The notes beneath the pieces were generated by a model. It was given only the letters and a program-made list of their open reading frames with translations, ran no database searches and had not been told where the DNA came from. DNA of 64,000 nucleotides, taken from NCBI GenBank assembly GCA_017612805.1, contig JAGAFD010000005.1, forward strand, positions 10,130-74,129, written 5' to 3'. Below, piece after piece: positions 31,275-61,572 of the stretch. Every line of letters starts with the position of its first letter. Positions within the stretch are counted from its first letter, which is position 1. Origin of the DNA: Bacilli bacterium (GTDB lineage Bacteria > Bacillota_I > Bacilli_A > RF39 > UBA660). The position numbers and the translations under genes are program-made.

Positions 31275-31351
31275 GTCTCCGTAGCTCAGCTGGATAGAGC
31301 ATACGCCTTCTAAGCGTACGGTCGCGCGTTCGAATCGCGCCGGGGACACCA
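31275..31351 (+). tRNA. tRNA-Arg (anticodon TCT), CCA encoded
   Basis: Cloverleaf with acceptor GTCTCCG/CGGGGAC and a GC-rich T-arm (GTCGCGCGTTCGAATCGCGCC). The anticodon loop is CTTCTAA. Confidence 0.85.
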
Positions 31352-51915: not shown

Positions 51916-52677
51916 TTATTTTTTATCAGTTAATTTTTTAGTTTGACCTTTATAGATATCACGCGATTTTTTTAAAATATCTTGAAGTTCTTCCGGATAA
52001 ATACTATTTACTTTATTAATTAATTCTTCATCTATTTCAATATCTAATAATCTTATTCCTTTTTCTTCTTTTAAGAATATCGCATCTTCAATGTAGATAA
52101 CATTTGCATACGAAGAAAGGGCATTATCAAACCTAACGCTATTGGCATAACCATTAATAATATTACGATAAATAACGCCTTTAAATTCTCTTAAATCATC
52201 AAAGCTTTGGAATATTGCATGTTTAGCAAAAAAAGCATTAGCAATAATCACAATATCACTTATATGTGGAGCTTTCTTTTCATCTTTAACTTGTTTATCA
52301 TCCCACACTAAGATATTATTAACTGCAAATTCACGGTGACCTTTTTTATCAAGATCATAAGCTTCTAAAATCCATTCTTCATGAGCATGCCATTCAGATT
52401 TTTTATATTCTAATTTAATTGGAATAATATTTCTTTTAGCAGTAATTCCTTCCCAATTTTTATAAGTAATCGTAACTACTTTTTTACGCATATTAGCTAG
52501 TTTTTTAGCATCCTCATCACTTAATAGCATATTTTGTACTAAACCACTTTCGGATGTCGTTGCCACATGATAATATAGCGTTTCATCTGAATCATCAAAT
52601 TCTTTAAAACAAAATGAACCTAAATCGTCGCCTCTTTGTTCTCCAGAAATTACATTTAATCTTTTAATCTCACCCAT
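51916..52677 (-). CDS. hypothetical protein
   Basis: 253-aa ORF. Confidence 0.45.
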   Translation of the reverse strand: MGEIKRLNVISGEQRGDDLGSFCFKEFDDSDETLYYHVATTSESGLVQNMLLSDEDAKKLANMRKKVVTITYKNWEGITAKRNIIPIKLEYKKSEWHAHEEWILEAYDLDKKGHREFAVNNILVWDDKQVKDEKKAPHISDIVIIANAFFAKHAIFQSFDDLREFKGVIYRNIINGYANSVRFDNALSSYANVIYIEDAIFLKEEKGIRLLDIEIDEELINKVNSIYPEELQDILKKSRDIYKGQTKKLTDKK

Positions 52678-52700: not shown

Positions 52701-53372
52701 TTATTTTTTCTTTAATGTTAATACATGCCAGTTAAGTTTTTCTGCTCCACCTTCATTATGATATTCAACAATATCAAATAAGCCTTCTCTAAAGTTGTCA
52801 ATATCTTCTTTAGTATAATAAGCATAAAATCTTTTTTCTTGAGTTTGTTTATCTTTTAATATTAAATAATTATATTTAGTACCATCAGAAGCGATCTCGG
52901 CATCCGGATGTACTAAAGCATTTTGAAAATTAATAATAAATAAACCATCATCATTTAAACCATTATAAACAACTTCAAATAGTTTTTTAACATCTTCAAT
53001 ATTTAAATGCGGATTACGCCATGAAATAATTAAATCGGCTTTCTTACCAAACGTTTTAATAAAATCATCCGTTAAAAAATTATATTTAACAACATTATTA
53101 ATTCCCATTCTTTGTTGTTCTTCTAAAAAATCATCAACAATATCACTAGCAACTATATCATATGATTGATCTTGTAACATTTTAGCAAGATCACCAGTGC
53201 CACTACCAAATTCAACGATAAATTTATTTCGATCACCGTTTAATCCAGTATCAACATATTTAAATAATCTTTCCCATTTATCGGTTTCAGGATCAATCGC
53301 TTTATGATTAATATATTCTAAAGCTCCCCCATTATTATACATTTCAATTGTTCTTGTATTATCTTTACTCAT
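52701..53372 (-). CDS. class I SAM-dependent methyltransferase
   Basis: SAM motif VEFGSGTGDLAKML. Confidence 0.6.
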   Translation of the reverse strand: MSKDNTRTIEMYNNGGALEYINHKAIDPETDKWERLFKYVDTGLNGDRNKFIVEFGSGTGDLAKMLQDQSYDIVASDIVDDFLEEQQRMGINNVVKYNFLTDDFIKTFGKKADLIISWRNPHLNIEDVKKLFEVVYNGLNDDGLFIINFQNALVHPDAEIASDGTKYNYLILKDKQTQEKRFYAYYTKEDIDNFREGLFDIVEYHNEGGAEKLNWHVLTLKKK

Positions 53373-53427: not shown

Positions 53428-54903
53428 TTAATATCCCCCTTTTAATTGTTTAATAAACATTGCCCCTTTTTCATATATACGATCCCTATCTACTATAACA
53501 ATTGGACATTCTTTAAACCAATCAGGAAGTCTTTCTGGATTAGGTGAATCAGCATCTAAATAAGTATCCAATAACATGGCATTATCGCCACATGTACCAT
53601 TAACTAAAGTATCAGTTCTCGTATAACCAAAGCCTTCTAAAGCATCATCAAATAGCCTATAATATTTAGGATCAATATCATTAGCTTTTTTGGTTAAGTA
53701 TTTTTGTACTTCAATACCACCCCTTATAATGCCATATTTATCTCTAACATATTTTTCTTCATAATTTTTTGCAAATAAATATAGATTAGGACATATTACA
53801 TCTTCATATGACCATTTAGTTTTAATTAATTTAAAAACATAATCACCAATCCGATAACAACTACAAGTACTACCCTCACCAATAAAACCATATTCTCTAC
53901 TATGACTTAAATCCATATATTTTTCCGTCCACTCTTCTAACAAAGGAGTTAAACTACGCCAATCCATATCTTTTAAAACATCTTTGGTTATATTTATTTT
54001 ATATTCATCAATTCTTGGAGGATACAAATAATAACGCATTCTAAACGCAAACTCATCTAATAATTCTTTACTTACATGAACTTTTTCACCAAACAAAATA
54101 TGAAAACGATAATTCATAGATGTCTTAAATAAAATATCAGCATCTTTATCAAATATTTTTCTATTTCTTTCTAACTTATCTAAATCAGATGAATTATTTA
54201 CATAAACTGGGGCAAGTATTTCATCAGCTAAACTATTATATTGATAAGTTGCTAATATAAGCTCTTTTAATTTATCAAATTCTTGATAGTAATCATTATT
54301 TAATAATTTAACCGCCAATTTTGAAATATCATGAACATCCATTTGTTCAGCAAATAATACCATTTGTTCACCTGGTTCATGCGTAAAAGAAGTAGTATAT
54401 TTAGTAATATCATCATATATTTCATTAATCTTATCAAGATGATTTTCAATTAAATAATCCATAAATAAATAACGAATATGTAAATTATGGTATCTAGATA
54501 GTTGATGTAATAATTCTTGATTATTAGCATCAAAAGCATATTTTACAACTACTTCAAAATTCTTTGAATCTTTATCATTTAACAAGAAATAGTCAAAATT
54601 ATCATTTAATACTTTTAAGCCTAAAGGAGAATTATATAATAAATTACTTAATCTTCCCGAATCAATTAATTTTAAATCGAATAAATCAATAGCATCATCC
54701 ATAAATTCTGGAATATCATAAATTATTAAAAAACAAAAAGTTGGTGATTTAAGTTTTAATTTAGGAAGAAAACCATTAATTATTTCAATTCGATTTTTTG
54801 ATTCTCTAACTAATGCTATTAAATTATCTTTATCATATGTTGATAAACGATTAACAAAATCAACATTACCTTCTTTTAAATATTCTAATGTACTAAAAGC
54901 CAT
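53428..54903 (-). CDS. hypothetical protein with C-terminal kinase/phosphotransferase-like region
   Basis: 491 aa. A Gly-rich loop, GFIGEGSTCSCYRIGDYVFKLIK, then acidic motifs (VIVDRDRI). Strong AAGGGAGG RBS. Confidence 0.5.
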   Translation of the reverse strand: MAFSTLEYLKEGNVDFVNRLSTYDKDNLIALVRESKNRIEIINGFLPKLKLKSPTFCFLIIYDIPEFMDDAIDLFDLKLIDSGRLSNLLYNSPLGLKVLNDNFDYFLLNDKDSKNFEVVVKYAFDANNQELLHQLSRYHNLHIRYLFMDYLIENHLDKINEIYDDITKYTTSFTHEPGEQMVLFAEQMDVHDISKLAVKLLNNDYYQEFDKLKELILATYQYNSLADEILAPVYVNNSSDLDKLERNRKIFDKDADILFKTSMNYRFHILFGEKVHVSKELLDEFAFRMRYYLYPPRIDEYKINITKDVLKDMDWRSLTPLLEEWTEKYMDLSHSREYGFIGEGSTCSCYRIGDYVFKLIKTKWSYEDVICPNLYLFAKNYEEKYVRDKYGIIRGGIEVQKYLTKKANDIDPKYYRLFDDALEGFGYTRTDTLVNGTCGDNAMLLDTYLDADSPNPERLPDWFKECPIVIVDRDRIYEKGAMFIKQLKGGY

Positions 54904-54940: not shown

Positions 54941-55090
54941 AAAAAATAAAAACAAAAACAAAAAATGGAGAGCTAACGCTCTCCTTCAGGGGGTTTTGGT
55001 TGAACACTCACATTAGTAAAACGGTGAGTCTTCAAGCATGATGTGTATCATGCTATAATCATTATATGATATCAAACTAATTCTTGTCAA
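54941..55090 (-). promoter_or_regulatory. promoter + ~95-nt structured leader + intrinsic terminator upstream of the 491-aa gene (candidate attenuator/riboswitch)
   Basis: On the minus strand: TTGACA (55085-55090), an 18-nt spacer, TATAAT (55061-55066). Then hairpins GCATGAT-acac-ATCATGC and ACTCAC-N12-GTGAGT, then CCCCCUGAAGG. The terminator is GGAGAGCGTTAGCTCTCC (54967-54984) followed by a U-rich tract. Confidence 0.5.
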
Positions 55091-55733: not shown

Positions 55734-57704
55734 TTAAGAAATAATTTTCAAACTATTAATGATATTATTAACAACATCATCATTATTTAATAATGCTTCA
55801 TTACTATCAACAATTGCTTGTTTTAAAATTTTAAAATCAGTTCTTAAATCCGCAATTTTAAAATGCATGTCACCACTTTGGTTAGTTCCGAAAAGGTCAC
55901 CTTCTCTTCTTATTTTGAAATCCATTTCGGATATATAAAAACCATCATTAGATTCTTCTAATACCGTTAATCTTTCTGTCTTTTTATCACTAATTAAAAA
56001 GCAATATGATTTAATATCACTTCTTCCAACTCTTCCTCTTAACTGATGAAGCGTTGAAAGACCAAAACGTTCGGCATTATAAATAATCATTACGGATGCC
56101 GTATCAGAATCAATTCCTACTTCAATAACAGTTGTTGATATTAAAATATCAATCTTTTTATTCATAAAATCCGTAATGATTAAATCTTTTTCATTATTTT
56201 TTAATTTACCATGTAAAATAGCAATCTTTTTATTAGGAAATGCTTTTAAATACTTTTCTTTTAATAATTTAACACTATTTAATTCATCATCTTCTTCATT
56301 TTCAATTGAAGGTGCTACGACATAAACTTGATGATTTAGTTCTAATTCTTCTTTTACTTTAATCAAAACCGTTTTAATATCATCTTCTTTAATAACTTGG
56401 GTTTTAATTTCACTACGATTACCTGGTTTAACTTTAATAATAGAAGTATCCATATCACCAAATATCGTCATGGCATAAGTTCTTGGAATTGGCGTTGCGG
56501 TAGTATAAAGCAAATCAGGTTTAACCCCTTTATTAATTAAACATTTTCTTGCATTAACCCCAAAACGATGTTGTTCATCAGTAATTACTAAACCTAAATT
56601 ATTAAATGATAATTCATCATTTAATAAAGCATGGGTACCTACAATAATATCAATCTTATTATTTTTTAAATCTTCATAAATACTTAGCTTTTCTTTTTTA
56701 GTTAATTTACCAACAATTAATTTAATATTAAGATCTTTAGGCATTACTTTTAACATATTTTGATAATGTTGAATAGCTAAGATTTCCGTTGGTGCCATTA
56801 GGGTTCCTTGATAACCACCTAAATAATTAATATATAAAGCAATAATCGCCACAATTGTTTTACCACTACCAACATCACCCATTAAAAGACGATTCATCCT
56901 TTGCCCATTAGTTAAATCATTTAAAATATCATTAACCGCTTTATTTTGATCTTCGGTTAATAAAAAAGGTAGATTATTCATAAATTCATTTAACTTATCA
57001 ACATCAATAACTCTTTTTAAACCATTATCTTTTTTATTCATTCTTTTTAAATAATTAATCTTAGTTGCAAAAGTAAATAACTCTTCATAAATTAATCTTA
57101 ACCTAGCTTTTTTTAAATCATCAATATTTTGCGGATTATGAATAATATTTAAAGCTTCCTTTTTGTTAATAAATTGATACTTATTAACTAAGTTAAGAGG
57201 AATATTATCAAGGTAAGAATAATTAGTAGTTAAAGCTTCCATAATATAACTATGTAAGTTCTTTTGTTTAACTTCTCTTATTACATGATAAACGGGAATA
57301 ATGGTTTCTTTTTTGATAACATTAAAACTAATATCATTAACAATAAATTGATTTTTTAATTTATCGTATTTACCCGTTAAAGTTAAATCGCTATTTAACT
57401 TAATATTATTTTTAAGAAAGTGTCGGTTAAAGATAACCGCTTTCATAATTTTTTTATTACTATTAATATCAAATGATAAGATATTCATATTCTTTCTAAT
57501 AAAGCTTAATTTAACTGGTGATATAACTTTCGCATTAATGGTAATAGCATTATTAAAATCATTACAATTTAAGATATTTATTGGTCTTAAAATATTATAA
57601 CGAAATGGATAATAATTAACTAAATCATCAACATTATTAATATTTAATTTATTTAAATAACTAATACTTTTAGTACCAATTCCTTTAATGTCTTTTAAAT
57701 CCAT
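55734..57704 (-). CDS. recG: ATP-dependent DNA helicase RecG
   Basis: 656 aa. The N-terminus is MDLKDIKGIGTKS. Walker A is GDVGSGKT, and DEQHRFG and the helicase C-motifs are present. Confidence 0.9.
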   Translation of the reverse strand: MDLKDIKGIGTKSISYLNKLNINNVDDLVNYYPFRYNILRPINILNCNDFNNAITINAKVISPVKLSFIRKNMNILSFDINSNKKIMKAVIFNRHFLKNNIKLNSDLTLTGKYDKLKNQFIVNDISFNVIKKETIIPVYHVIREVKQKNLHSYIMEALTTNYSYLDNIPLNLVNKYQFINKKEALNIIHNPQNIDDLKKARLRLIYEELFTFATKINYLKRMNKKDNGLKRVIDVDKLNEFMNNLPFLLTEDQNKAVNDILNDLTNGQRMNRLLMGDVGSGKTIVAIIALYINYLGGYQGTLMAPTEILAIQHYQNMLKVMPKDLNIKLIVGKLTKKEKLSIYEDLKNNKIDIIVGTHALLNDELSFNNLGLVITDEQHRFGVNARKCLINKGVKPDLLYTTATPIPRTYAMTIFGDMDTSIIKVKPGNRSEIKTQVIKEDDIKTVLIKVKEELELNHQVYVVAPSIENEEDDELNSVKLLKEKYLKAFPNKKIAILHGKLKNNEKDLIITDFMNKKIDILISTTVIEVGIDSDTASVMIIYNAERFGLSTLHQLRGRVGRSDIKSYCFLISDKKTERLTVLEESNDGFYISEMDFKIRREGDLFGTNQSGDMHFKIADLRTDFKILKQAIVDSNEALLNNDDVVNNIINSLKIIS

Positions 57705-57769
57705 TATCGATCACCTAATACTAATTATAACATGTAAAAAAATTTTTATAAAAAAAGTGTAAAAAAGTG

Positions 57770-57903
57770 TTGACAAATATAGTCTTTTCGATTAGTATAA
57801 ACACTACCAATTCACACAAGGCGAATTGGTGCTAGTATCACACTAGCCAACCCCTTTTTATTCTTTTAGAAGCAGTCTTCAGGGGGCTGCTTCAGTTTTT
57901 TTT
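57770..57903 (+). ncRNA. orphan promoter-to-terminator unit, candidate small RNA (~100 nt)
   Basis: TTGACA (57770-57775), a 17-nt spacer, TAGTAT (57793-57798). Hairpins CCAATTC-N9-GAATTGG and GCTAG-N7-CTAGC. The terminator is GAAGCAGTC-ttcaggg-GGCTGCTTC followed by T8 (57869-57903). No + strand CDS lies downstream. Confidence 0.4.
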
Positions 57904-57905
57904 AA

Positions 57906-57937
57906 ATAAAAGATATCAAGTATTACTTGATATCTTT
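57906..57937 (-). terminator. intrinsic terminator after gtrA-like gene
   Basis: GATATCAAGTA-ata-CTTGATATC followed by UUUUAUUU on the minus strand. Confidence 0.6.
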
Positions 57938-58339
57938 TTTATGTTTAAAAACAATTAATTTAGAAAATACATAATTAGCAATGGTTACTACTACTTGACT
58001 TACTAATTTACCAATAATATCACTTTTTTTAAGCAAGGATACGATAATAAACATGCAACCCATATCCATAAATAAACTTAAGATTCTAGCAAATACAAAT
58101 AAACATATTTCTAGAAAAATATTTTTATTTTTACTTTCAAATACAAATATTCGATTAGTTATATAAGCAAAAGTTACTGCTGCAATCCAACTAATAATAT
58201 TAGCAATTTGTAACTTAATGGCATTATCCGGATCAAGAAAAGTTCTTGTAAGAATAAAGTATGTTACAAAACTAACAACCGTTGTTAATACTCCCACAAT
58301 TAAATATTTAATTATTTCTACAAAATTATTCTTCTTCAT
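57923..58339 (-). CDS. GtrA-family membrane protein
   Basis: 138 aa with four TM helices. The N-terminus reads IIKYLIVGVLTTVVSFVTYFIL. Confidence 0.6.
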   Translation of the reverse strand: MKKNNFVEIIKYLIVGVLTTVVSFVTYFILTRTFLDPDNAIKLQIANIISWIAAVTFAYITNRIFVFESKNKNIFLEICLFVFARILSLFMDMGCMFIIVSLLKKSDIIGKLVSQVVVTIANYVFSKLIVFKHKKDIK

Positions 58340-59875: not shown

Positions 59876-61572
59876 TTAACACCACCCCTTTTAATTGATT
59901 TAGGATATAATTTTAACATTTCATCCCAACGAACAATAAATAAATCCGCGATTTGATAAATTAAATTACCCGTAGCACTTCTTTTACTAGAGTTAGCTAA
60001 TGTTTCAATAAAGATTGTTTTACTATCAAGCTCTTTTCCTAAACAAAGCATTGGTCCAGCAAAATGGGCTCCTGTTGATACAATTACATCTGGCCATATT
60101 ATTAAATAGATAAATAAACTCTTAAAAGCATTTAATATTAAACGTATTCCATAAATTAAAATATTATGGCGATCAGATCCAAACATTAAATAATAAACAC
60201 GCGGATATTTTTTGACTAAATCAATAGTGGTTTTAGTTTTTTCGGTAACCAAAGTGGTATCATACTTTTTAAATAATGGTTTTAATACTAAAATTTCTGA
60301 TAAATGACCACCATTAGTTGCAATAAAGATTACTCTTTTTTTATGAATATCATTTAAATAATTAAATTCCGTTAATAAAAGTAAGATAATTAATGCCAGA
60401 TAGATATTTACTGCTGGGCTTACTAAAACATGCCCAGAAAGCATTGCTAAAAGCATGCCAAAGCCTAAACTTAAATAACAATTACTAATTGTTAAATTAA
60501 TCTTTTTAAATACCTTTTTAATAACAAATATACCTAAGTAAATAAATGGCATTACATAGATAATTAAACCGACTATTCCCCCACGGTAGAAGATATCACA
60601 TAAATCCATTTCAACTAATCGAACATCATATCTAGTATACCCAATACCAAATAGTTTTTCATCAAGATGACTGTTCTTATAAACTTTATTATTAGCTTTT
60701 AAGAATTCATCACGACCACTACTAATAATATCTTTATCACTTTTATCATCAGTATTATAAGCAAGTAAAGTTTCTTCTTTAATCGCCAAATTTTCATTAA
60801 TACGGTTATGTCTAGTTATAATATTTTGATAAGCTGGTGAAAAATAAGCAAATACTAAAATTGCTACCATAAACCCGAAATATAAAATACGATTCTTTTT
60901 CTTAATTAAACTAACAATCATATAATAAATAGTTGTTAATGAAATACCAATTAAAACGGTTTTAGTTCCAATCATTAAGAAAACAATTGCACTAATCATT
61001 CCCACAATCTTAAAGAAAATACTATTACTAATCTTTTCATACATAAATGGGAATAATAAAACCGCGATTGCACTTATTTCATTAGCAGCATAAAAATAAC
61101 CCATATAGCCAGCTAAATGATATTTAAGAGGATATGTTAAATTACCCGTTCTTGTAATAAGTGCAATGGTTAAAATTAATGCAAATACATAACCATTAAT
61201 ATAAATAACGTTTTTAATACTTCTTTTATCAATACCAATTTCATCATAAAAGTTTAATAATAATACTAATATCGTTGGTAAACTAAACATTTTAAATATA
61301 TTAATAGCTTCTTTAATAAAATTAGTATCTAATTTGGTTAAGAAATATATTCCACCATAAACCATTAATAAAATAAAATAACTAATGGTAAGCATACGAT
61401 ATTTACTATTACTTTTAAATACTACCATGCCAAAAAGCATTAATATAATTAATCCTCTTACCACTATTCCAATTGATATTGGAAATGAAAAATAACGAAC
61501 TTGTAAAGCCGTTAATAAATCAATCAGTGGATATAAAATAAAAAGTGTTGTTACAAATTTATTATTTTTCAT
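59872..61572 (-). CDS. polytopic membrane domain (O-antigen-ligase/polymerase-like) fused to Alg14-like glycosyltransferase subunit
   Basis: About 400 aa with at least 10 TM helices. The C-terminal 150 aa is Alg14-like: VIFIATNGGHLSEILVLKPL...IVSTGAHFAGPMLCLGK. Confidence 0.55.
   Translation of the reverse strand: MKNNKFVTTLFILYPLIDLLTALQVRYFSFPISIGIVVRGLIILMLFGMVVFKSNSKYRMLTISYFILLMVYGGIYFLTKLDTNFIKEAINIFKMFSLPTILVLLLNFYDEIGIDKRSIKNVIYINGYVFALILTIALITRTGNLTYPLKYHLAGYMGYFYAANEISAIAVLLFPFMYEKISNSIFFKIVGMISAIVFLMIGTKTVLIGISLTTIYYMIVSLIKKKNRILYFGFMVAILVFAYFSPAYQNIITRHNRINENLAIKEETLLAYNTDDKSDKDIISSGRDEFLKANNKVYKNSHLDEKLFGIGYTRYDVRLVEMDLCDIFYRGGIVGLIIYVMPFIYLGIFVIKKVFKKINLTISNCYLSLGFGMLLAMLSGHVLVSPAVNIYLALIILLLLTEFNYLNDIHKKRVIFIATNGGHLSEILVLKPLFKKYDTTLVTEKTKTTIDLVKKYPRVYYLMFGSDRHNILIYGIRLILNAFKSLFIYLIIWPDVIVSTGAHFAGPMLCLGKELDSKTIFIETLANSSKRSATGNLIYQIADLFIVRWDEMLKLYPKSIKRGGVK

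Follow-up and report, generated by a model that had tools for sequence, protein, structure and literature searches.

RsaE/RoxS is a small RNA (sRNA) that is conserved in the Bacillales and pairs with the G-rich Shine-Dalgarno regions of mRNAs. Its targets are metabolic mRNAs, and it is under redox/NO or Rex control. Its C-rich motifs repress translation or destabilize the mRNA by this pairing, and it is itself titrated by another sRNA. Pairs of sRNAs in which one has a G-track and the other is C-rich include RoxS and RosA in Bacillus subtilis, and RsaI with RsaE, RsaG, or RsaD in Staphylococcus aureus. Also known are boxB-boxA of rrn operons, nut of phage lambda, and put of phage HK022, which are promoter-proximal RNA modules of long untranslated or late transcripts. 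To our knowledge, essentially no regulatory RNAs have been described from the branch of uncultured Bacilli that we consider here. We analyzed a stretch of 64,000 nucleotides (the window) from the Bacilli bacterium assembly GCA_017612805.1 (contig JAGAFD010000005.1, positions 10,130 to 74,129). Beside recG it contains a unit, sRNA-1 (57804-57903, + strand), that from comparison of its relatives is very probably a genuine stand-alone sRNA gene of about 95-100 nt with an intrinsic terminator. On the other side of recG is another unit, sRNA-2 (54959-55054, - strand). We report sRNA-1 and sRNA-2 as two uncatalogued families of stand-alone bacterial sRNA. sRNA-1 resembles RsaE/RoxS in its design and is not a member of that family.

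The sRNA-1 promoter (57770-57798, +) consists of a -35 box TTGACA (57770-57775), a 17-nt spacer, and a -10 box TAGTAT (57793-57798). Hairpin 1 (57806-57830, +) begins 2-3 nt past the inferred transcription start near 57804; in the minimum free energy (MFE) fold, the DNA arms ACCAATTC and GAATTGGT correspond to ACCAAUUC and GAAUUGGU in the RNA, on either side of a ACACAAGG-type loop. Hairpin 2 (57831-57847, +), as given by the alignment of 92 family members that is described below, is GCTAGT-ATCAC-ACTAGC in DNA and GCUAGU-AUCAC-ACUAGC in RNA, with the loop AUCAC. It is followed by a pyrimidine-rich strand of 21 nt, CAACCCCUUUUUAUUCUUUUA (57848-57868, +), which is left unpaired in both the MFE and the centroid folds and is a candidate seed or binding site. 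sRNA-1 has a single C-run. The intrinsic terminator (57869-57903, +) has a stem (57869-57877 / 57885-57893), the loop UUCAGGG, AG, and U8 (57896-57903); as DNA, the hairpin is GAAGCAGTC / TTCAGGG / GGCTGCTTC (57869-57893, with one U-G pair) and the T8 is at 57896-57903. The predicted fold of the 100-nt RNA has three hairpins and an energy of -31 kcal/mol (z = -5.2 versus shuffles). The promoter, both hairpins, and the terminator with its T8 are thus all where the original prediction had placed them. That no + strand ORF follows the unit was also borne out: there is none of at least 40 amino acids after sRNA-1 in the window, and both neighbors are on the minus strand. These are recG (55734-57704, -; Pfam RecG_wedge, DEAD, Helicase_C, and RecG_dom3_C), which lies between the two sRNA genes, and a convergent gene of the GtrA family (gtrA-like; 57923-58339, -). 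We rejected a small peptide as the product of sRNA-1: the hairpins enclose the sole frame, a UUG ORF of 6 codons, and the invariance of the family at the nucleotide level speaks against coding.

A promoter match on its own says little in this DNA, as the window has 59 promoter-like sites and 82 were expected from shuffles; promoter-like hexamers could have arisen by chance beside a terminator that serves the convergent gtrA-like gene. (Terminator-like sites are enriched in the window, with 9 observed and 1.8 expected from shuffles.) However, an A/T-rich bidirectional hairpin (57908-57938, both strands) spans the stop codon of the gtrA-like gene and is separate from the sRNA-1 terminator. This hairpin is the gtrA-like gene's own terminator and a back-stop for sRNA-1, so the hairpin at 57869-57893 is not simply the terminator of that gene, which was the objection that the original prediction had raised against itself. 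Also, the hairpin at 57869-57893 has a U-run on the + strand only. The comparative data, in which the unit is kept despite varied downstream neighbors and nearly always has a promoter, refute a chance pairing of promoter and terminator, and we consider its probability to be close to nil.

To find relatives by a route that does not involve the RNA, we compared the RecG protein to species-representative genomes and obtained four metagenome-assembled genomes (MAGs) of uncultured Bacilli (loci L001-L004; 68-49% identity in RecG). The conservation in relatives that had been proposed as a check was found in all four: each carries the sRNA-1 unit back-to-back with, and divergent from, recG. Together with the window, this gives five RecG-ascertained loci that were located without reference to the RNA. 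In L001, the body of the RNA is identical to that of the window over ~70 nt although RecG is only 68% identical, and an A-U pair of the terminator stem is swapped to U-A. The upper part of hairpin 1 and the terminators differ from the window in L002-L004, and the terminator of L003 is without the TTCAGGGGG loop. Across the five loci, the unpaired strand (CCARCCCCUUUUUAUUCUUUU) has one variable position (A/G).

A DNA-pattern scan of metagenomes with the 21-mer strand yielded at least 120 contigs from rumen, human, and other gut samples (this and the other family counts refer to the matches listed), and nearly all of them contain the full architecture of sRNA-1. A promoter of the form TTGAC[AT]-16/17-TAnnAT, ending 8-9 nt before hairpin 1, is present in 101 of 105 distinct upstream sequences. 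Where enough flanking sequence is available, a divergent RecG is encoded within 1.5 kb upstream in 60 of 96 metagenome copies. On the downstream side, most loci have a convergent ORF nearest to sRNA-1 and some have a co-directional one, and the identity of this ORF varies; none follows on the + strand in the window. sRNA-1 is therefore not a leader. The family occurs widely among AT-rich, uncultured Bacilli from gut and rumen, and its members usually lie back-to-back with the recG promoter. In the window, 18 bp separate the -35 boxes of the recG promoter (TTTATA at 57752 and TATAAT at 57724, with TG) and of the sRNA-1 promoter. Within the sRNA-1 promoter, the 3' part of the spacer (TTTTCGAT, ahead of TAGTAT) is kept in many loci and may be an operator. 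We view recG as no more than genomic context for both sRNAs. A covariance model of sRNA-1 (R1) finds one copy in the window (104 bits), as does the strand pattern with 3 mismatches allowed, so this is not the dispersed small repeat family that the original prediction had considered possible. For Lachnospiraceae, Izimaplasma, Pelagibacter, and other loci, the region around recG gave no significant match to the model.

Compensatory changes support the structure. In an alignment of 92 non-identical chromosomal members (A1), 96.5% of cells are paired and 14 of the 23 pairs show double changes. None of 500 shuffles matched the observed values, and if the partners are slid then pairing falls to 22-50%. 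Hairpin 1 is 99.7% paired with at least one double change at 6 of its 7 pairs, and all 7 pairs of the lower terminator stem have double changes. G-U pairs are frequent (for example, 41 members have U-G at one terminator position) and are valid on the + strand only, which identifies the strand of the RNA. In contrast, while hairpin 1 and the terminator covary, all six pairs of hairpin 2 are unvarying. Hairpin 2 and the single strand form an invariant core of 38 nt, GCUAGUAUCACACUAGCCAACCCCUUUUUAUUCUUUU. The 21-mer was the search pattern, so its invariance in the large set is partly due to ascertainment, but that of hairpin 2 is not. The order of a 5' hairpin, hairpin 2, unpaired CCAACCCCUUUUUAUUCUUUU, and a terminator is fixed across the family, while the terminator stem varies freely and its loop is usually YCAGGGGG. 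Altogether, the promoter spacing, the compensatory changes in the stems, the relatives found by RecG, and the metagenome copies strongly support the proposal of an orphan small RNA that runs from promoter to terminator.

Some members of the family depart from this pattern. A U-run follows the terminator in most of them. In one subclade (L054, L071, L072, L085, L087, L096, L103, L125, L135, L140, L143, and L147) there is no U-run, and UUAGAU(A/U)AAAAA is conserved after the last hairpin, which implies that the 3' end is formed differently there. Some contigs have tandem sRNA-1 genes 430-790 nt apart, as in L097 (95-207 and 885-996, minus) and L148 (1-87 and 415-521). In L059, a degenerate second copy (943-1033, GGUGCUCCCCAGCACCCUUUUUAUUCUUU) lies just 3' of the intact one.

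We compared these RNAs to Rfam 15 by a scan of the window at the gathering thresholds and by E-value scans of both sRNA loci, 21 further member loci, and 12 viral loci (described below). No family reached threshold for sRNA-1 in the window, in the 21 further member loci, or at the corresponding module in the 12 viral loci; this is the Rfam scan that the original prediction had called for. In the window, the gathering scan reported only a T-box leader (2124-2307, -) and a tRNA. A riboswitch or cis-acting leader is not indicated either, as no known aptamer matched at sRNA-1 and there is no conserved downstream gene on the same strand. The top sub-threshold match in the window was the DUF2815 RNA motif (RF03084; 24.4 bits versus a threshold of 41.2; 57853-57893, minus strand), where a hairpin with a GCCCC..UGAAG loop is followed by UAAAAAGG. 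This is the wrong strand given the promoter, the U-run, and the G-U pairs, and the match was not reproduced in the 21 other member loci, so we rejected this identity and treat the match as chance. Full-text literature searches on a 13-mer of the motif, on recG and C-rich sRNAs, and on DUF2815 returned nothing relevant. There was no sequence match in the part of the human-microbiome catalog of structured RNAs that we compared, which covers the large candidate catalogs incompletely.

The nearest family is RsaE/RoxS (RF01820), with 21.2 bits and an E-value of 0.75 in L097 (the gathering score is 79); there was no match at E ≤ 10 in the window at 57600-58050, and none at E ≤ 1 in the 20 other member loci. 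In the sub-threshold match in L097, the Rfam model aligns CCCAUCCCCUUUGUUU and the terminator of RsaE to GCCAACCCCUUUUUAU and the terminator of sRNA-1. The two RNAs are similar in size, stand alone, have one or more 5' hairpins, and have an unpaired motif of the type CCCCUUUxUUU just before an intrinsic terminator. In sRNA-1, CCAACCCCUUUUUAUUCUUUU is this unpaired CCCC followed by a U-rich stretch, and in both RNAs the motif is extremely conserved in sequence. However, sRNA-1 has one C-rich region whereas RsaE/RoxS has two to four, including one in a hairpin loop. The hairpins of sRNA-1 are also different, as are its host clade (uncultured AT-rich gut and rumen Bacilli) and its linkage to recG, and we know of no phage-borne variants of RsaE.

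The other sRNA, sRNA-2, has a promoter (55061-55090, -) that matches the consensus at 12 of 12 positions (TTGACA at 55090-55085, an 18-nt spacer, and TATAAT at 55066-55061). From 5' to 3' it runs through hairpin A (55054-55035) and hairpin B (55029-55006) into the unpaired GUUCAACCAAAACCCCCUGAA (55005-54985), and it ends in a terminator (54984-54967) with a U-run; UUCAACCAAAACCCCCUGAAG is unpaired, and sRNA-2 has no Rfam match. A search of the fetched loci identified 27 distinct members with a common architecture, which as a rule lie shortly after recG. As judged from folds of each sequence, this is hairpin A, hairpin B, unpaired (U)UCAACCRAA(A)CCCCCUG(AAG), and a variable terminator. In 5 of 5 RecG-ascertained genomes, sRNA-2 is downstream of and co-directional with recG, either directly or after a DUF975 gene. 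This unit had been described as a leader at 54.9 kb, and we instead classify it as a stand-alone family with its own consensus promoter and terminator. The 491-amino-acid ORF that follows it (53428-54903, -) has no Pfam domain and no homolog in any fetched relative locus, and a -10-like box, TGTTAGAAT, intervenes; for these reasons we do not consider sRNA-2 to be its leader. sRNA-2 is not a copy of sRNA-1 either: the covariance model of sRNA-1 does not match the sRNA-2 unit, and we rejected homology on this basis.

Several observations about the flanks of sRNA-2 concern mobile elements. The 3' flank often has TATAAGGGTTTGCG and short direct repeats of the TAGATACC or GGTACC type (L057, L069, L072, L084, L105, L149, and L191). 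L098 contains a duplicated partial 3' end of sRNA-2 and two CCCCCTGAAG sites ~2.2 kb apart. It looks as if integrative elements use the 3' end of sRNA-2 as an attachment site. A scan of viral sequences for sRNA-2 gave mostly random matches and genuine ones in L191, L205, and L219 only, which look like the host flanks of prophages. Beyond the 491-amino-acid ORF, in the window, are a methyltransferase (52701-53372) and a WYL-domain protein (51916-52677); these three genes may form a variable or defence island that was inserted beside sRNA-2.

The G-rich 9-mer TTCAGGGGG links the two sRNAs. The window has just two copies of it (54985 and 57878) where 0.10 would be expected, so it is as rare as had been claimed. 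The original prediction took it to be an element that both units share, and this holds for the DNA; the units are on opposite strands, so in RNA the two copies are complementary. The sRNA-2 RNA (minus strand) carries CCCCCUGAA, which is the complement of the sRNA-1 loop and not the same element. More precisely, CCCCCUGAAG in the unpaired part of sRNA-2 is the exact complement of the terminator loop and 3' shoulder of sRNA-1, CUUCAGGGGG (57877-57886, +). The sRNA-1 terminator loop has CAGGGGG in 73 of 92 members and UCAGGGGG in 66 of 92, and CCCCCUG is present in 26 of the 27 sRNA-2 members. If both genes are on the same contig, then they usually have perfect complementarity of 7-11 nt (17 of 21 pairs), and the mean duplex energy is -17.7 kcal/mol versus -9.0 kcal/mol for shuffled partners. 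These patterns argue strongly that the G-run loop of sRNA-1 would pair with the C-run of sRNA-2. The arrangement is similar to RoxS-RosA and to RsaI and its partners, where the G-run of one sRNA complements an unpaired C-run of another (here, CUUCAGGGGG and CCCCCUGAAG). The differences are that sRNA-1 has its G-run in its terminator loop and also bears a C-rich strand of its own, and that the genes for sRNA-1 and sRNA-2 flank a single gene, recG. Rfam did not detect homology to RosA or RsaI at either sRNA locus.

The G-run might instead pair within sRNA-1. The CCCC of the strand and the GGGG of the terminator loop are both kept in most members and are ~25-30 nt apart, which is a spacing compatible with an H-type pseudoknot, so sRNA-1 could be a self-contained RNA: an orphan that is riboswitch-like, or senses a ligand or a condition, and thereby controls its own termination or stability. 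However, 4-5 bp could form at most, and the G-run is absent from ~10-20% of the members and from all of the phage variants. The conserved UCA just 5' of the G-run has no partner within sRNA-1: it matches the UGA of sRNA-2 and not sRNA-1's own CCCCUUUU. Also, the lack of a conserved downstream gene on the same strand and of a riboswitch match in Rfam does not suggest a sensor. We consider a self-contained RNA to be very improbable.

We tentatively propose, with a little less than even confidence and from sequence comparisons, that sRNA-1 acts in trans by base pairing in the manner of RsaE/RoxS, and that sRNA-2 is its partner. The exposed C/U-rich strand would bind to purine-rich Shine-Dalgarno regions with G-runs (AAAAAGGGG-like) and would repress translation or destabilize the mRNA, as the C-rich motifs of RsaE/RoxS do. 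The G-run in its terminator loop would pair with the unpaired CCCCCUG(AAG) of sRNA-2, and by this contact one of the RNAs would titrate, or be titrated by, the other (a sponge). Runs of GGGG or GGGGG are present in many ribosome-binding sites of the window. The top predicted target is the ribosome-binding site of a gene with a Glyco_tran_28_C domain (59876-59915; -21 kcal/mol, ~3.5 standard deviations below the mean), and this site is kept in L001. Duplex scans across the 64 kb of the window gave modest matches only. We rejected a pairing of hairpin 1 (ACCAAUUC) with the recG mRNA at GGAAUUGGU (Gly-Ile-Gly codons), as these codons vary freely across loci and hairpin 1 does not.

The 21-mer strand is also found in 12 viral contigs, where the module heads the leader of the late operon. 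In L174, L181, L182, and L184, a late-type promoter after direct repeats is followed by a hairpin 1 of unrelated sequence at +1, then by a hairpin 2 that keeps its 3' strand and has a changed 5' strand or register, then by the strand, and then by a hairpin that is not a terminator. Among four phage variants with centroid folds, three leave the strand unpaired and the fourth, L177, has it partly paired. In L175-L179 and in the metagenome contig L131, 37 nt of the host core come directly after a tRNA-like element that ends in ...CCCACCA. The flanking genes are an activator gene (Sigma70_r4-like) upstream, and terS-like and terL genes downstream. The late leader is several hundred nt of non-coding RNA with tRNA-like elements and tRNAs, and in L183 it also includes a ROOL RNA (195 bits) ~220 nt downstream of the module. 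Examples of these leaders are L174 4925-5345, L177 10520-11230 (-), L183 3680-4650 (-), and L131; they contain unusual tRNA-like elements (GGGTAG...CTACCCACCA) that were missed by ARAGORN, and repeated motifs of a hairpin with ACUGAUGAUAU. Neither the host sRNA-1 nor the phage leader had a match in GenBank phages. If sRNA-1 is a pairing RNA, then the phages presumably supply the same activity during infection via the hairpin/hairpin/strand module at the 5' end of the late transcript.

A number of observations weigh against a trans-acting pairing RNA. A pairing seed usually needs fewer than the 38 invariant nt seen here, which include a 6-bp stem with no covariation in any of 92 sequences; such conservation fits sequence-specific recognition by a protein, or tertiary recognition, better. 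Part of the invariance, that of the 21-mer in the large set, stems from the search itself. We found no target that is conserved across genomes (in the ~10 kb per genome that we examined). When we searched 1.65 Mb of loci for k-mers complementary to the strand, the only matches were scattered sites and antisense copies of the element itself, with nothing recurrent. The phage copies have no G-rich loop and are located in cis, where a long operon leader begins, a position that suits a cis-acting element of transcription or processing at least as well. As to the partner, four same-contig sRNA-1 copies have no G-run while their sRNA-2 keeps its C-run, so the pairing of the two RNAs would be dispensable. 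The G-run and the C-run do not truly covary, as both are nearly invariant. Finally, sRNA-1 is known from sequence alone, and its host from metagenomes only.

The main rival, which we consider rather unlikely on balance, is that hairpin 2 and the pyrimidine-rich strand are a sequence-specific site for a conserved protein or for the transcription machinery. Phages would use the module in cis as an anti-Rho, processivity, or processing element, and the host version would be a decoy or the RNA of a ribonucleoprotein. This would explain why none of 92 sequences departs from the stem and loop of hairpin 2 even though hairpin 1 and the terminator show covariation, and it fits the failure to find a conserved mRNA target. 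It also fits the phage copies, which lie directly after late promoters, between the activator gene and terS-like/terL, and which lead into several hundred nt of non-coding RNA with tRNA-like elements and, in L183, ROOL. One candidate is a Nus-factor site like boxB/boxA: UAUUCUUUU in the strand resembles UUCUUU, the core of boxA. As in boxB-boxA of rrn, nut of lambda, and put of HK022, the phage module is at the 5' end of a leader (of the late operon) and has a hairpin and then a U/C-rich strand. However, UUCUUU is the extent of the demonstrated similarity, and the likeness to boxA amounts to these 6 nt. There are no rRNA genes in the fetched loci and hence no rRNA leader for comparison. Unlike those modules, the host RNA is not an operon leader: it is terminated after 95 nt and needs no antitermination, so its role in the host would be that of a decoy. 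No candidate protein is genomically linked to sRNA-1, as the downstream neighbors vary. In a more specific form, which we consider unlikely, the core is not an mRNA seed and is a recognition element for a host factor (in elongation, evasion of Rho, RNA processing, or the ribosome) that phages have captured, and sRNA-2 sets the availability of the host decoy.

The identity between phage and host could also reflect site-specific integration, with the sRNA-1 gene as attB and the phage copy as attP, in which case the phage copy need not be a functional homolog. The identity of the copies in L175-L179 and L131 to the host spans exactly 37 nt, and their flanks are unrelated. The neighboring sRNA-2 is clearly used in this way (as judged from the duplicated partial 3' end in L098 and from direct repeats like integrase arms in several loci). 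Also, the invariant core of sRNA-1 is the exact point at which L141 switches from the 5' flank of L082 (the recG side) to the 3' flank of L089. This junction is due either to recombination or integration at the core or to a chimera in the metagenome assembly over the ~50-nt identical stretch. However, L174, L181, L182, and L184 are evolving homologs and not copied att cores, as each has a late promoter and a hairpin 1 of its own and a hairpin 2 in a new register. Also, no integrase adjoins the phage copies, which are placed between the late activator and terS. An attachment site could at most account for the phage copies and not for the host gene. It may apply to the L175-L179 group and not to the groups with their own promoter and diverged hairpins; as an account of the phage-host identity in general, we consider it improbable.

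Elsewhere in the window, the T-box leader (2124-2307, -; 96.4 bits, at the Rfam threshold) is the only cis-regulatory RNA that Rfam recognizes, and the tRNA is at 31275-31348 (+).

The central question is whether the invariant core is a pairing seed, which we favor tentatively, or a factor-binding module, which we consider possible and less probable. In either case, a large branch of the uncultured Bacilli of gut and rumen gains two well-supported sRNA families, for which we have more than 90 (sRNA-1) and 27 (sRNA-2) distinct sequences. They also reveal a conserved arrangement (sRNA-1 <- | -> recG ... -> sRNA-2) with a testable interaction between the G-run loop and the C-run strand. The intergenic regions of both sRNAs are left empty by gene callers at present; both families are suitable for Rfam, and their inclusion would improve the annotation of thousands of MAGs. 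The module at the head of the phage late leaders ties a host sRNA to the poorly understood islands of phage non-coding RNA that contain tRNA-like elements and ROOL. If the core is indeed recognized by a host factor, then it would represent a new class of RNA control module that is shared by host and phage, and it would provide the first functional handle on the RNA islands with ROOL and tRNA-like elements.

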